A stretch of 32,197 nt of DNA. It comes from Candidatus Onthocola stercoravium. Lineage in GTDB: Bacteria > Bacillota_I > Bacilli_A > RF39 > UBA660. A program made the position numbers and the translations under genes. The stretch lies in NCBI GenBank assembly GCA_018711775.1, contig DVHV01000059.1, forward strand, positions 1-32,197, written 5' to 3'. Under the pieces are notes generated by a model. The model was not told the origin of the DNA, did no database searches, and saw only the letters and a program-made list of their open reading frames with translations. Below are positions 2,585 through 25,238 of the stretch, piece after piece; position 1 is the stretch's first letter; the number at the start of each line of letters is the position of its first letter.

Positions 2585-3534
2585 TGAATTATTTAATTTA
2601 TCCAATTAAAATTATGAACATAACTCAAACATATAAAAATGATTTTTCTCATTCAAGACATACTGTTGGCACACCCAAAGACTATCCGATTGATGACAAC
2701 TGTGGAGCTACTGGACCAAATGGTTACTTTTATTGTCCTTGCGATGCCATGACTGTTAAAAAAATATATGGTATTGGCAGTAGTTCTTCTAATGTTTTAT
2801 GGCTTGAATCGACTACTCCTGTTATTACACCAACATTCACTGATTATGTCACCATTATGATAGGTCATATCGAAGACGCAGAACTAAATAAACTTAAAAT
2901 CGGTCAAACATTTACTAGGAAAGAACCAATTGCTATCGAAGGCAAAGATGGTTTTGCTACCGGAGAACACTTTCATATCGTTGTTGGCCGAGGAAAATTT
3001 AAAGGATCAGGCTGGGTAAAAAATACTAATGATATTTGGGTTATCAATACCACTGGTGGGTCAGTTAAGCCAGAAGATGCTTTTTTCATCGATAATACAT
3101 TTACTACGATTAAAAATAGTGCAGGTCTTAACTTCTTAGATTTATATATCCCTAATATTGAAGAAGATGATTATTACTATACAACTGCAGAATCCCTAAA
3201 TATTCGTTTAGGACCAGGAACAAATTATAATGCCATAAATACTCTTCCTAAAAATAGTCGCATTAAAGTTCGTGAATTTATTAATAACTGGGCTAGAATC
3301 ACAGATAAAGAATATGTTGCTAAAAATTATGTAACCAAAAAAGCACCTAGCAAATATTATGAAACTAAATCGACAACTGCAGATTTTCTCAATGTTCGTA
3401 GTAAACCTGCTGGAACCATCCTTAAAGTTAAAGCACCACTACCTAAAGGAACAACGGTGGCAGTAATGGAAGAAAAAAATGGTTGGACCAAAATTAATAC
3501 TAATCGTTGGGTATATTCTTCATATGTAAAGTAA
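2584..3534 (+). CDS. M23-family metallopeptidase with two C-terminal SH3 (SH3_3-like) cell-wall-binding domains; endolysin-like
   Basis: It carries the M23 hallmark block GHIED...LKIGQTFTRKEPIAIEGKDGFATGEHFHIVV (HxH motif). Two repeats follow, of the form ...LNIRLGPGTNYNAINTLPKNSRIKV... and ...LNVRSKPAGTILKVKAPLPKGTTVAV...W. There is no signal peptide, and the gene is coupled to the upstream holin. Confidence 0.75.
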   Translation: MNYLIYPIKIMNITQTYKNDFSHSRHTVGTPKDYPIDDNCGATGPNGYFYCPCDAMTVKKIYGIGSSSSNVLWLESTTPVITPTFTDYVTIMIGHIEDAELNKLKIGQTFTRKEPIAIEGKDGFATGEHFHIVVGRGKFKGSGWVKNTNDIWVINTTGGSVKPEDAFFIDNTFTTIKNSAGLNFLDLYIPNIEEDDYYYTTAESLNIRLGPGTNYNAINTLPKNSRIKVREFINNWARITDKEYVAKNYVTKKAPSKYYETKSTTADFLNVRSKPAGTILKVKAPLPKGTTVAVMEEKNGWTKINTNRWVYSSYVK

Positions 3535-7762: not shown

Positions 7763-7837
7763 GGAACCGTAGCCAAGTGGCTAAGGCGTAGGTCTGCAAC
7801 ACCTTGATCGCCGGTTCAAATCCGGCCGGTTCCTCCA
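7763..7837 (+). tRNA. tRNA-Cys: tRNA-Cys (anticodon GCA)
   Basis: A 75-nt cloverleaf. The acceptor stem GGAACCG/CGGTTCC is perfect, the T arm is GCCGG-TTCAAAT-CCGGC, and the anticodon loop is CTGCAAC. The discriminator is U followed by an encoded CCA; U73 is the known CysRS identity element. Confidence 0.93.
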
Positions 7838-8883: not shown

Positions 8884-8968
8884 CCAAAATAGGGATTTGC
8901 TAACAAATATATATGCATCAAGGCAATGGTGTTGCAGACCTATGCCTTAACCAATTGACTATAGTTTC
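8884..8968 (-). pseudogene. Decayed tRNA-Cys(GCA) copy, inverted relative to the functional gene
   Basis: The minus strand reads GAAACTATAGTCAATTGGTTAAGGCATAGGTCTGCAACACC... The 22-nt block TAAGGC[A]TAGGTCTGCAACACC matches the real tRNA at 21 of 22 positions. After the anticodon loop there is a 5-nt insertion, then CCTTGAT, then AT-rich filler and a residual ..GCAAATCC.. T-loop. No 3' acceptor strand is present. A hairpin AATCCC/GGGATT (8878-8897) plus a T-run follows on the minus strand. Confidence 0.65.
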
Positions 8969-9083
8969 GCATTTAAATTTAACTTGTGGTAAAAATTGTC
9001 TTTTGTTTGACGAATAAATTGTCAAGAAATATTGCTATTTGTCGAATATTTGGTTATAATAAAAAAGAATAGGGAAGTGTGGT

Positions 9084-21741: not shown

Positions 21742-22758
21742 TTAATTTTCTTTTCTTAAAGTATATGCTACATAACCAATACCAATAGCACTTAAGCATA
21801 ATACAATAGCATATTGCATTATATTATCTCCAGTACTTGGATTTTCTATTACTTCATCAGTAGTAGTATTTTCTCCAAGTATAGCATATTCACTTAAGTG
21901 AGTAGTATTAAATACTACATATTCACCATCAATAGTAGTATTAAATGTTTCTACTATTTTACCATCTAGTATATATGCGGCAGTTAAGGCATCATATGCA
22001 AGCATTTCATCAGTAAGTTTTATTCTGATAGTAAATGTTCCATCTTCCATTGGAACAACACTGTTATTTTCATCAACTACTGAAATATCATATAAAGCAA
22101 CTAATGATTTATTAATGCTATTTACTTCTGCTTTTAATTCATCACTAGCAGAATCTAATATATTAGTTACATCTAATTTATATGAGTCAGCAAAAGATTC
22201 AGTAGTTTCAAAAATCACATCATTAGCTTCAAGCTTATTATTTATAGCTATATCGCTAGTAAATGTAACAGAGCCATCTTCGTTATAAACAACATCCATA
22301 TCTGTAGTAATGTGTTCGCTAATCCATTCTTCGGTTAAATCGTAAGAAACCCAACCAGTACCACTTGTGGCTGATTTATAACTATCAATAGTTAAACTAC
22401 CGTCACCAGATATTACATAAGTTTGATCTAATATTACATTGATGAAATTGTCTCCATTTACAACAATTGTTGTATTATCCTTAGCGCCACCAAATAGATA
22501 AAATCCTTGATCTTGAGAAAATGTTAATACATCATCACTTGTATAAGTAGCAAGTAAATTAGCGTTTTCATTGATTTCTTGGTAAGGAATACCATCATCC
22601 ATTAAATAAATTGTATCAGCAAAAACTCCAACCCCAGGAACAGTATCGATTTCTTCATAATTCCAAGAAAATTCAGTTTCTGATGCATCAGTGCTAGCAC
22701 TAACTATAGTTGGAACAAGCATAAATACTGCAAGTAAACTAAACAATATTTTCTTCAT
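21742..22758 (-). CDS. Secreted cell-wall-anchored surface protein with an NPSTG (LPXTG-variant) sorting signal
   Basis: It has a signal peptide (KKILFSLLAVFMLVPTIVSAS). The C-terminus has NPSTGD, a hydrophobic helix and then RKEN. The tracked ORF starts at 22764, but that ATG is only 2 nt from GGAGG, so the second ATG at 22758 (8-nt spacing) is preferred. Confidence 0.7.
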   Translation of the reverse strand: MKKILFSLLAVFMLVPTIVSASTDASETEFSWNYEEIDTVPGVGVFADTIYLMDDGIPYQEINENANLLATYTSDDVLTFSQDQGFYLFGGAKDNTTIVVNGDNFINVILDQTYVISGDGSLTIDSYKSATSGTGWVSYDLTEEWISEHITTDMDVVYNEDGSVTFTSDIAINNKLEANDVIFETTESFADSYKLDVTNILDSASDELKAEVNSINKSLVALYDISVVDENNSVVPMEDGTFTIRIKLTDEMLAYDALTAAYILDGKIVETFNTTIDGEYVVFNTTHLSEYAILGENTTTDEVIENPSTGDNIMQYAIVLCLSAIGIGYVAYTLRKEN

Positions 22759-22900
22759 CTTCATTACCTCCTTTCTAGTATAATAATACTCCGACTTAAC
22801 TCTAAAATCAATTGTTTAGACAAAAAACAAAAAAATATGCATTCTAAACTCATCCATTAAACCTATTGTTTCTATTTAAGAAATATGATATATTAAATAT

Positions 22901-22999
22901 GTAAGCGTTACCCCTAGTGGATAATGCCTGCAAGGTTTTTTCTTGAGACACTATACCTGCCCAATAAAAATTGGGGCTACAAGGCTAGTGTCTCTTTTT
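22901..22999 (+). ncRNA. Candidate ~100-nt antisense sRNA convergent with the 24-codon ORF
   Basis: The promoter is TTGTTT (22866-22871), 17 nt, then TGaTATATT (22886-22894). The compound hairpin is closed by GAGACACTA (22945-22953) with TAGTGTCTC (22986-22994), and has an inner CCCAAT/ATTGGG stem. It is followed by TTTTT only in the + sense. Confidence 0.45.
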
Positions 23000-23074
23000 C
23001 TATATCAATTGCAGTATCACTACAATTAATAAGATTATGATTACTAAAAGTTTTTCTAATATTTCTTCTTTCAT
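23000..23074 (-). CDS. 24-aa hydrophobic peptide (type I toxin-like small ORF)
   Basis: AAAGGAGG lies 8 nt upstream of ATG 23074. The ORF encodes MKEEILEKLLVIIILLIVVILQLI, with a TAG stop at 23002-23000. A candidate promoter, TTGTCG (23220-23215) and TATAAA (23196-23191), lies upstream. The ORF is below the size cutoff of the ORF track. Confidence 0.45.
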   Translation of the reverse strand: MKEEILEKLLVIIILLIVVILQLI

Positions 23075-23259
23075 CTCTTTAGCCTCCTTTTATCCAAAAC
23101 CCCCAAAGTTTTGAGTAGTAATAGATTACTCAGACTTAAAAGCAGGCACTACCACTAGTAGGTAACGGTTATTTATTCTAAATTTAAATTTTTATAATTG
23201 CAACAAAAATCGTACGACAAAATTTGACATTCTTCTAATGAAACATAATAAAAATATTA

Positions 23260-23472
23260 TTATTTTCTTTTGCTCTTTAATGTAGCCTTTTTTACTTCAT
23301 CAGCGATTTCTTTATCACTTAATTCTAAAGCAATAGCAATTTTCCCAAAAGTATCTATTAGAGGCATATTTAAATCGTTTTCAATTCTAAATATAGTTTT
23401 TCTGTCAATATTAGTTCTTGCTTCTAATTCTTCTTGCGATAATTTTTTCCTTGTACGATATTCTTTTAACAT
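23260..23472 (-). CDS. XRE-family HTH transcriptional regulator (70 aa)
   Basis: The RBS is AGGTGA. The HTH reads LSQEELEARTNIDRKTIFRIENDLNMPLIDTFGKIAIAL. Confidence 0.85.
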   Translation of the reverse strand: MLKEYRTRKKLSQEELEARTNIDRKTIFRIENDLNMPLIDTFGKIAIALELSDKEIADEVKKATLKSKRK

Positions 23473-23518
23473 TATATATCACCTAAATTTATTGTATCTA
23501 ATTTAAAATTTCATTTCC

Positions 23519-23567
23519 TTGACAAGTTTGCCTCATAAATGTTATACTCGTTATAGACAAACTTGTC
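23519..23567 (+). promoter_or_regulatory. Promoter of the FN3 protein gene, flanked by a 10-bp perfect inverted repeat (operator candidates)
   Basis: TTGACA (23519-23524), 18 nt, then TGtTATACT (23540-23548). GACAAGTTTG (23521-23530) is the reverse complement of CAAACTTGTC (23558-23567). The right-hand site is itself the palindrome GACAA-AC-TTGTC (23556-23567). Confidence 0.6.
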
Positions 23568-23584
23568 CCAAAAGGAGTTGAGTT

Positions 23585-25090: not shown

Positions 25091-25238
25091 TAGACATAGT
25101 TTAAATTATGGCTATTTTTCTTGCTTCGACAAAAATCGACAAAATAAGACCCAGTCAACTACTTTTCACCAAAATATATTTGTGGTATAATAGAAACATA
25201 AGTTACCATGATGCTTATTTTAGAGGGAGAGTGATAAT

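Follow-up and report, generated by a model that had tools for sequence, protein, structure and literature searches.

The subject of this report is a short conserved module, a candidate type I toxin-antitoxin (TA)-like locus, on contig DVHV01000059.1 (GenBank assembly GCA_018711775.1) of the uncultured gut bacterium Candidatus Onthocola stercoravium. Positions 1 to 32,197 of the forward strand of this contig were analysed and are referred to throughout as the window, within which the unit is present as a single copy. It is situated between two minus-strand genes, one encoding a 70-amino-acid (aa) XRE-type helix-turn-helix protein (23472-23260) and the other a 340-aa surface protein (22764-21742), with a P-type ATPase gene 1.3 kb away, and it comprises a minus-strand gene for a short hydrophobic peptide and, converging on it from the plus strand, a predicted gene for an antisense RNA. 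Its features, in window coordinates and with the basis for each, are the following.

22859-23233, minus strand: whole conserved module, as matched by the family hidden Markov model (HMM; nhmmer, E = 2e-96)
23215-23229, minus strand: upstream box, TGTCAAATTTTGTCG (consensus in the family TGTCGAAyTTTGTCG), in which two TGTCG half-sites are spaced 10 nt apart (alignments A3 and A4)
23175-23203, minus strand: promoter of the peptide mRNA, with -35 TTGCAA (23203-23198), a 17-nt spacer and -10 TAGAAT (23180-23175) (promoter scan and conservation)
22903-23170, minus strand: predicted peptide mRNA of ~265 nt, made up of a 95-nt leader, a 75-nt open reading frame (ORF) and a 95-nt 3′ untranslated region (UTR) (promoter position and extent of the long-range stem P1)
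23142-23167, minus strand: 5′ arm of P1, the 3′ part of which, GCCTGCTTTT (23147-23138), is the predicted anti-Shine-Dalgarno (anti-SD) sequence (folds and pair counts)
23113-23131, minus strand: 5′ UTR hairpin GAGUA...UACUC (alignment A4 and minimum free energy folds)
23096-23106, minus strand: nearly invariant motif UUGGGGGUUUU upstream of the Shine-Dalgarno sequence (SD) (alignments A3 and A4)
23082-23091, minus strand: SD AAAAGGAGGC, 8 nt before the ATG (read from the sequence)
23000-23074, minus strand: peptide ORF, 24 aa, hydrophobic, MKEEILEKLLVIIILLIVVILQLI, TAG stop (ORF list and family conservation)
22906-22931, minus strand: 3′ arm of P1, GCAGGCATTATCCACTAGGGGTAACG, complementary to the stem-loop at the 5′ end of the antisense RNA (alignment and folds)
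22866-22894, plus strand: promoter of the antisense RNA, with -35 TTGTTT (22866-22871), a 17-nt spacer and extended -10 TGATATATT (22886-22894) (conservation)
22901-22999, plus strand: predicted antisense (antitoxin-like) RNA of ~100 nt (conserved promoter and terminator)
22945-22999, plus strand: intrinsic terminator of the antisense RNA, consisting of a hairpin (22945-22994) and a T-run (22995-22999) (folds and T counts in 34 copies)

Judged by its pattern of variation across the family, the ORF is a real coding gene under purifying selection. It is intact, at 23-27 aa, in 31 of the 34 full copies, while the three inactivated ones have either lost the stop codon (one copy) or acquired a frameshift (two copies). 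Gaps in the ORF alignment come in multiples of three, and differences by codon position (28/19/48) are most numerous at the third. Along a minimum spanning tree of unique ORFs, the ratio of nonsynonymous to synonymous changes (pN/pS) is 0.37 in the main group and 0.41 in subfamily D. The peptides are represented by MKEEIIKKLLVIIIMLLVIILRLI in subfamily A, MNKEENISTLLVIIILLIVVILRLI in subfamily B, MKEERMLLLVIIIILLLIIIKLI in subfamily C and MNDNEFCLVIIIVILALVGKINEKRR in the divergent subfamily D, the charged end being N-terminal in the main subfamilies and subfamily D ending in a basic tail.

Downstream of the SD, the sequence ATGAA is invariant across the family (alignments A3 and A4), and this is the start codon we have adopted. 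An extra ATG is found further upstream, after GGGGG, in loci L028, L035, L036, L038, L040, L050 and L019 (in all of these ~20 nt before the main ATG) and in L049, L052 and L022 (at 3000); in some copies it is in frame and would add the residues MKGAKD, and in subfamily D it opens a mini-ORF of 4-8 codons overlapping the main start. Initiation at the upstream in-frame ATG (MKGAKD-MNKEEN...) was considered and rejected, as it is found in some copies only and is absent or out of frame elsewhere. A separate observation concerns the base preceding the invariant ATG, either G or U, which co-varies with the last base of an Ile codon (ATC/ATA) 11 codons downstream (12 G-C vs 13 U-A; columns 188 and 227 of alignment A3, window ~23075 and 23042). 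These counts represent two haplotype groups and few independent events, and they hint at a helix that would include the start codon.

A first-pass annotation made from the letters of this stretch alone had assigned a 24-aa ORF to ATG 23074, with a TAG stop and a strong SD 8 nt before it, and both assignments stand (ORF 23074-23000 on the minus strand, SD 23091-23082). This does not extend to its minus-strand promoter, TTGTCG (23220-23215) with TATAAA (23196-23191), or to its leader of ~110 nt. The proposed pair is unconserved in the family, TTGTCG being part of the conserved upstream box and TATAAA falling within the variable spacer of the promoter listed above. On the evidence of a promoter scan and an alignment of 35 copies, we rejected it as the mRNA promoter in favour of TTGCAA-17-TAGAAT, which is kept, with a spacing of 16 or 17 nt and a spacer of variable sequence, in all 35 aligned copies and which places the leader length at ~95 nt. 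The mRNA start predicted from this promoter (~23170-23168) falls at the foot of the 5′ arm of P1, and family-wide it lies 1-3 nt before this arm. Further into the leader, subfamily D has GCCGG-AUU-CCGGC as its hairpin in the position occupied by the 5′ UTR hairpin of the other copies, and the alignment is out of register here in this divergent subfamily.

The upstream box is positioned just upstream of the -35 hexamer, and of its 37 occurrences in the fetched loci 35 are inside modules. We take its resemblance to CtsR or OmpR-family direct-repeat sites to be only loose, and make no assignment. One of the solo boxes, TGTCGATTTTTGTCG, which has a third degenerate repeat, is found in the window itself (25127-25151, minus strand), between a gene for a 501-aa protein and a TetR-like gene, and another is found in locus L016 (2513). 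The same intergenic region of a sister genome (L013, 2556-2696) contains a box, a -35 hexamer and a free-standing antisense RNA gene. Taken together, the solo box and the L013 arrangement look like the remains of a second, decayed module.

On the plus strand, the first-pass annotation had proposed an extended -10 promoter at 22866-22894, a hairpin at 22945-22994 followed by TTTTT on that strand only, and an RNA whose 5′ end mimics the mRNA leader, all of which are confirmed in the sequence. The promoter elements TTG, TG and TAnAnT, with an invariant spacing of 17 nt and a spacer of varying sequence, are found in 34 of the 35 copies. Since the hexamers are conserved around drifting spacers, here as in the mRNA promoter, both promoters look functional. 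The 9 nt that follow the terminator hairpin contain on average 6.5 T on the antisense strand vs 1.0 on the mRNA strand (34 copies), the terminator stem exhibits compensatory changes, and the terminator directly abuts the stop codon of the ORF. The predicted antisense RNA is fully complementary to the mRNA 3′ UTR, and its 5′ part is a near copy of the 5′ arm of the mRNA, folding into a hairpin with a C-rich apex (ACCCCUAG). Duplexes between this 5′ part, including the C-rich apex, and the leader, the UUGGGGGUUUU motif or the SD were no better than those obtained with shuffled sequences (mean z -1.0), on which ground trans pairing of the antisense RNA to the leader was rejected.

The arms of P1 had also been noticed at first pass, as imperfect inverted repeats through which the leader could pair with its own 3′ UTR. 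Consistent with this, we find 25 pairs between 22906-22931 and 23142-23167, three of them G-U, with two bulges and a predicted duplex energy of -41.1 kcal/mol. In the family alignment the 5′ arm ends in GCCUGCUUU, and the 3′ arm, GCAGGCATTATCCACTAGGGGTAAC, is the most conserved segment of the whole family. A 276-nt minus-strand RNA is predicted to fold at -96.7 kcal/mol (z = -8.5), with none of 200 shuffles as stable; the plus strand yields a less stable fold (-79.1 kcal/mol), because the G-U pairs of the stem become C-A mismatches there. When the 25 pairs of P1 and 12 pairs of the terminator were counted on alignment A4, standard pairs were found in 92.3% of cells, vs 27-42% with the partners slid by 1-3 columns. 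Changes on both sides were found in seven pairs (37 cells), and none of 500 shuffles reached the observed covariation or paired fraction. These compensatory changes mostly separate subfamily D from the rest (GCCUGC/GCAGGC vs UCUAC/GUAGG). From this sequence comparison, the P1 structure can be regarded as supported.

Beyond the window, a search with the arm pattern over one genome per species identified 23 true loci in about ten uncultured Bacilli metagenome-assembled genomes (MAGs) and in one contig binned as Muribaculaceae. Four further matches to the same pattern, L024, L026, L030 and L034 (Hymenobacter, Sphingopyxis, Algimonas and Litorimonas), show no homology to the module and were discarded as chance. 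A pattern taken from the most conserved stretch detected nine human-gut metagenome contigs, and the family HMM, run over all fetched loci, returned 46 hits, 33 of them full length, with up to six in one genome. Altogether the family is spread over about a dozen uncultured gut Bacilli genomes as well as gut metagenome contigs, and no copies were found in viral contigs (two pattern scans) or in phage and plasmid collections (blastn of the unit). Its homology begins at the upstream box, ahead of the mRNA promoter, and continues as far as the antisense -35 hexamer. The copies are all intergenic and have unrelated neighbours, often filling the gap to within 5-50 nt of the adjoining genes, and they form tandem pairs or triplets in L029, L025, L035, L033 and L022. 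The Muribaculaceae (Bacteroidota) label belongs to the MAG of contig CAZEMQ010000058.1 (L027), a 6.3-kb contig with one full and one partial module; given that every other copy is found in Bacilli MAGs, a binning error is likelier than transfer.

Within Candidatus Onthocola stercoravium, placed by its NCBI name in Bacilli incertae sedis and represented by a MAG that encodes an XRE protein identical to that of the window, the same locus was found in ten metagenome contigs, in which the structured flanks are 100% identical and the ORF exists in at least two alleles. These (MKEEILEK... vs MNKEE(N/Y)IST...) are set apart by a 3-nt indel that preserves the frame and by many changes that are synonymous or conservative. 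Two sister lineages share the synteny of this region and encode XRE proteins that are 87-89% identical, and the unit is absent from both (loci L016-L018): in one of them the spacer between the XRE gene and the surface-protein gene is only 123 nt long, and in the other the XRE gene has the P-type ATPase gene directly next to it. As these sister lineages have the same synteny without the unit, its ~375 nt constitute a discrete insertion or deletion carrying both promoters. The within-species ORF alleles are of separate note, in that they resemble reciprocal chimeras of subfamilies A and B between flanks that are 100% identical (L001-L010, ~3400-3480, vs window 23074-23000). The window ORF has an A-type head and a B-type tail, and the ORF of L003 a B-type head and an A-type tail, which suggests gene conversion between paralogous copies.

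Six partial copies are uncut by contig ends, namely L013 2591-2696, L038 1960-2050, L041 71-207, L025 4397-4538, L027 373-550 and L032 1290-1399. All six retain the 3′ part of the module, which is the antisense RNA gene, with promoter and terminator intact in five and degenerate in L032, and there is none among them that has kept the peptide half only. In L013, the leader and ORF have been deleted, so that the box and -35 now adjoin the antisense gene. By our own calculation, retention of the same end in six of six copies has a probability of ~0.016 if loss of either end is equally likely. This asymmetry, to which the three full copies with inactivated ORFs also belong, is as expected for a TA locus, because in that reading the peptide would be harmful without its antisense partner. 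The two ends of the module, each of which consists of a promoter and an arm, are quasi-palindromic, and may have originated by inverted duplication.

To relate structure to translation, the unpaired probability of the SD was modelled in three states and averaged over 35 copies. In the full-length mRNA its mean is 0.45. When the 3′ UTR is unavailable, being either untranscribed or bound by the antisense RNA, the mean is 0.27 (Wilcoxon p = 4e-8), and in a control in which the ORF was blocked instead it is 0.53. Blocking the 3′ UTR lowers the predicted openness of the SD by more than 0.1 in 23 of the 35 copies and raises it in none, and pairing of the SD with the first 42 nt of the mRNA climbs from 0.21 to 0.60. 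In folds of both the nascent RNA and the RNA bound by antisense, the SD (AAAAGGAGGC) has as its partner GCCUGCUUUU, located where the 5′ arm ends on its inner side. Cofolding of the two RNAs from the window gives a duplex of ~100 bp together with the anti-SD:SD helix (ddG -101 kcal/mol). The match of the antisense RNA to the 3′ arm is perfect, at -59.6 kcal/mol, and P1, at -41.1 kcal/mol, is the weaker of the two.

Considering these findings together, we think it probable that the module represents a previously undescribed type I TA-like family in uncultured gut Bacilli, namely Candidatus Onthocola stercoravium and its relatives. This is in line with the suggestion, already made at first pass, of a type I TA-like, antisense-regulated membrane-peptide module, which now gains support from selection on the ORF, the conserved convergent promoter and terminator, the stem and the partial copies that retain only the antisense gene. 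Type I systems have been defined by an mRNA of 150-400 nt, a peptide of 20-60 aa and an antisense RNA of 60-200 nt (PMC8594479). With a predicted mRNA of ~265 nt, a peptide of 23-27 aa and a predicted antisense RNA of ~100 nt, the module falls within these size limits. In 34 of the 35 copies, conservation points to an antisense RNA with its own promoter and terminator and complementary to the mRNA. Sequestration of the SD by an anti-SD and/or a 5′-3′ interaction, another hallmark of the class, is reflected in the conservation of P1 and in the GCCUGCUUUU:AAAAGGAGGC pairing seen in the folds. The overlap at the 3′ end also fits the layout of Gram-positive type I systems (PMC8594479). The family is new, its arrangement of familiar parts is new as well, and the class to which it would belong is an established one.

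How such a module most likely works can be put in the form of a model drawn from the folding predictions. A sigma-70-type promoter would drive an mRNA of ~265 nt for a membrane peptide of 23-27 aa, and a convergent extended -10 promoter would drive an antisense RNA of ~100 nt that covers the whole 3′ UTR and ends at the stop codon of the ORF. While the mRNA is still being transcribed, its SD (AAAAGGAGGC) would be paired with GCCUGCUUUU, the distal half of the 5′ arm, so that translation is blocked. Once the 3′ arm has been made, P1 would form, hiding both ends of the RNA and partly freeing the SD, and this would be the translatable form. The antisense RNA, which begins with a near copy of the 5′ arm and is a perfect match to the 3′ arm, would then displace the 5′ arm to form a duplex of ~100 bp, a likely substrate for RNase III, and the anti-SD would go back to the SD, so that less peptide is translated and the mRNA becomes less stable. 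Peptide made without the antisense RNA is assumed to damage the membrane. In its most novel form, to which we give well under even chances, the model would have the antisense RNA control translation from ~170 nt away by strand exchange: its 5′ end, as a better-matching version of the 5′ arm, would take the 3′ arm of the 25-bp clamp, and the freed 5′ arm would close the ribosome-binding site.

Several points weigh against the type I TA-like reading. In the mRNA sense, no terminator was recognised by a check for U-runs in 34 copies, and the 3′ end given for the predicted mRNA is approximate. The SD effect predicted for the window copy itself is small (0.46 to 0.38), and it is absent in L031 and L040, whose 5′ arm is without GCCUGC. 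Compensatory changes provide few independent events, as most of them set a single divergent subfamily apart, and the decay asymmetry is derived from a small sample of six partial copies. Finally, there is no match to any known toxin or antitoxin family. A cmscan of the window against Rfam gave no match at gathering scores, and only chance snoRNA hits in 22750-23300 at E up to 10, the antitoxin families tested including RatA, SR4-type, RNAII/par, SprA1as, Sok, Sib, Rdl, IstR and OhsC. Likewise, seven family peptides scanned against Pfam and NCBIfam at E up to 10 matched no toxin family (Fst, TxpA/Hol-Tox, Ldr, Hok, Ibs or others), all hits being far below cut-off; at first pass, too, the peptide could not be matched to a named toxin family.

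The main rival to the type I TA-like reading, which we hold to be unlikely though worth serious attention, is that the peptide is a non-toxic small membrane protein, perhaps one that regulates a membrane complex or is accessory to it, whose level is tuned by the antisense RNA without addiction or killing. Purifying selection on the peptide would be equally in keeping with such a role, as would the P-type ATPase gene 1.3 kb away and a similarity to the small membrane regulators MgtU (E = 0.07-0.11) and PhrA, but these matches are sub-threshold and far below the cut-offs. Copies of the module are, moreover, located beside unrelated genes, with several in one genome and some in tandem, sister species differ in whether they have the module, and decay always takes the peptide gene first, which is hard to square with a housekeeping accessory peptide. 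Selection at the codon level speaks against a further reading, in our estimation highly improbable, that the unit is a non-autonomous mobile repeat, resembling a miniature inverted-repeat transposable element (MITE) or Correia, BOX or RUP elements, with the arms as terminal repeats and the ORF and promoters incidental. Its many dispersed and strictly intergenic copies, at least three to six in several genomes, would suit a mobile repeat, as would the arms as 26-nt imperfect inverted repeats and the quasi-palindromic ends. Multi-copy and tandem arrangement is, however, typical of type I TA loci too, and this trait does not discriminate between the two. The arms lie ~65 and ~45 nt inside the conserved unit, the true ends of which form no inverted repeat, the spacers drift around conserved promoter hexamers, and no copies were present in the viral contigs, phages or plasmids scanned. 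The first-pass annotation had stated that dispersed copies with target-site duplications would make the unit a MITE; the dispersed copies were indeed found, whereas the duplications were not, the longest word shared by the two flanks averaging 5.45 nt vs 5.20 nt in shuffles. With flank words equal to the shuffled expectation and arms that are internal, identity as a MITE was rejected.

Two other explanations turn on single components of the locus. The ~100-nt plus-strand RNA could be the main product, acting in trans on other genes, with the ORF as a passenger or decoy. Free-standing antisense genes that are kept intact, and the C-rich apex (ACCCCUAG) of the 5′ hairpin, as found in many Firmicute small RNAs, would agree with this, but the ORF is conserved and selected and the 5′ part of the RNA pairs with the mRNA leader no better than chance (mean z -1.0), and we rate it lower still. 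Least probable of all, in our view, is a short hydrophobic signalling peptide of the SHP/Rgg or Phr type sensed by the neighbouring XRE-family regulator. It is suggested by the 70-aa XRE helix-turn-helix gene immediately upstream and by a sub-threshold PhrA hit of one peptide (E = 0.24); against it, the XRE protein consists of the helix-turn-helix only, without a peptide-binding repeat domain, sister species keep the XRE gene without the module, and the neighbours of other copies are unrelated.

Some features of the surrounding window deserve mention in their own right. Between the XRE gene and the divergent gene for the 501-aa protein, which contains fn3 domains, there is a palindromic operator-like sequence, GACAAGTTTG ... 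GACAAACTTGTCC (23490-23575), overlapping a near-consensus promoter, TTGACA-18-TATACT with TG; on this sequence evidence, the XRE protein probably regulates the 501-aa gene and its own gene, not the module. The 340-aa protein (21742-22764, minus strand) has a signal peptide and ends in NPSTGD, a hydrophobic stretch and a basic tail, as in a sortase-type cell-wall anchor, and its orthologues in sister species are of very unequal lengths (338 and 409 aa) or absent. Elsewhere, a partial and diverged second tRNA-Cys lies in inverted orientation to the intact one; its D arm and its anticodon arm, with GCA, are preserved and its T arm is gone (7763-7837, plus strand, and 8928-8985, minus strand, for the pair). 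The partial and intact copies, of which ARAGORN calls the intact one only, bracket ~1.1 kb of small membrane-protein-like ORFs, an arrangement that integration may have left behind. The last ORF is preceded by an Rfam ribosomal protein L10 leader (50.7 bits; 31515-31624, plus strand), an ordinary element whose presence shows the window to be chromosomal.

Novel families of type I are no rarity. The present one is well delimited and would add a family from a lineage of uncultured gut Bacilli for which none has been described so far, and one that current RNA and protein family libraries miss. The 35 aligned copies provide a ready model for annotating such loci in MAGs, where 24-codon genes and small RNAs are usually missed. 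Were the strand-exchange model true, it would amount to an undescribed type I TA design, in which the clamp activates rather than silences and the antitoxin is a molecular mimic, carried by a family that spreads and decays, toxin gene first, across the genomes of uncultured gut Bacilli. Engineered regulators are reportedly now being made by reuse of such compact RNA switches.

Among the known systems, hok/Sok of plasmid R1 and aapA1/IsoA1 of Helicobacter pylori are those in which a long-distance 5′-3′ interaction in the toxin mRNA controls translation and access (PMC8594479). A long-distance 5′-3′ interaction is likewise predicted in the mRNA of the module. In hok/Sok and aapA1/IsoA1, the antisense RNA binds the 5′ region, and 5′-3′ pairing keeps the full-length mRNA inert until its 3′ end is trimmed. 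The module differs in that its antisense RNA would bind the 3′ partner of the clamp and in that the clamped form is predicted to be the more open one at the SD, and, unlike hok, it has no conserved leader ORF comparable to mok. With par (fst/RNAII) of Enterococcus faecalis and SprA1/SprA1as of Staphylococcus aureus, it has in common convergent RNAs and repeats, common to the 5′ regions, that shape their interaction. In par and SprA1, pairing of the antisense RNA takes place outside the overlap, at the translation-initiation region (PMC8594479), whereas the repeat of the module makes the 5′ end of the antisense RNA a mimic, not a complement, of the mRNA 5′ end. The par-type organisation, with trans pairing at the initiation region and a bidirectional terminator, was not found here: trans pairing to the leader is unsupported (mean z -1.0), and the U-run is on the antisense strand only.

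In its genomic distribution, as multi-copy and sometimes tandem intergenic repeats each with a tiny hydrophobic ORF and an antisense RNA, the module resembles ibs/Sib and ldr/Rdl of E. coli. ShoB likewise has a charged N-terminus and a C-terminus that is hydrophobic to the last residue. The antisense RNA spans the whole ORF in ibs/Sib and is located 5′ of the ORF in ldr/Rdl (PMC8594479). It is placed otherwise in the module, and the organisms are unrelated and the sequences without similarity.

Most akin in layout are bsrG/SR4, txpA/RatA, bsrE/SR5 and yonT/SR6 of Bacillus subtilis, which have in common with the module a Gram-positive host, a small hydrophobic peptide, convergent genes and an antisense RNA of ~100 nt that overlaps the 3′ end of the toxin mRNA (predicted in our case). 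In bsrG/SR4, binding at the 3′ end promotes decay of the mRNA and also extends and tightens a helix over the SD (PMC3834814), and the switch predicted for the module is of the same kind. Nevertheless, no relationship to these systems by sequence, Rfam, Pfam or NCBIfam was found, the peptide of the module is shorter (23-27 aa), and its charged end is N-terminal in the main subfamilies. The antisense RNA also differs from those of B. subtilis, in that it would target one strand of the 25-bp 5′-3′ clamp while its own 5′ end copies the other, and it stops at the stop codon, remaining outside the ORF except in subfamily D. The layout as a whole joins a clamp of the hok/aapA1 type with a 3′-overlapping antisense RNA of the Bacillus type, a combination that suggests a strand-exchange switch. 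By analogy, its closest functional counterpart would appear to be bsrG/SR4, and its closest genomic counterparts the repeated ibs/Sib and ldr/Rdl loci.

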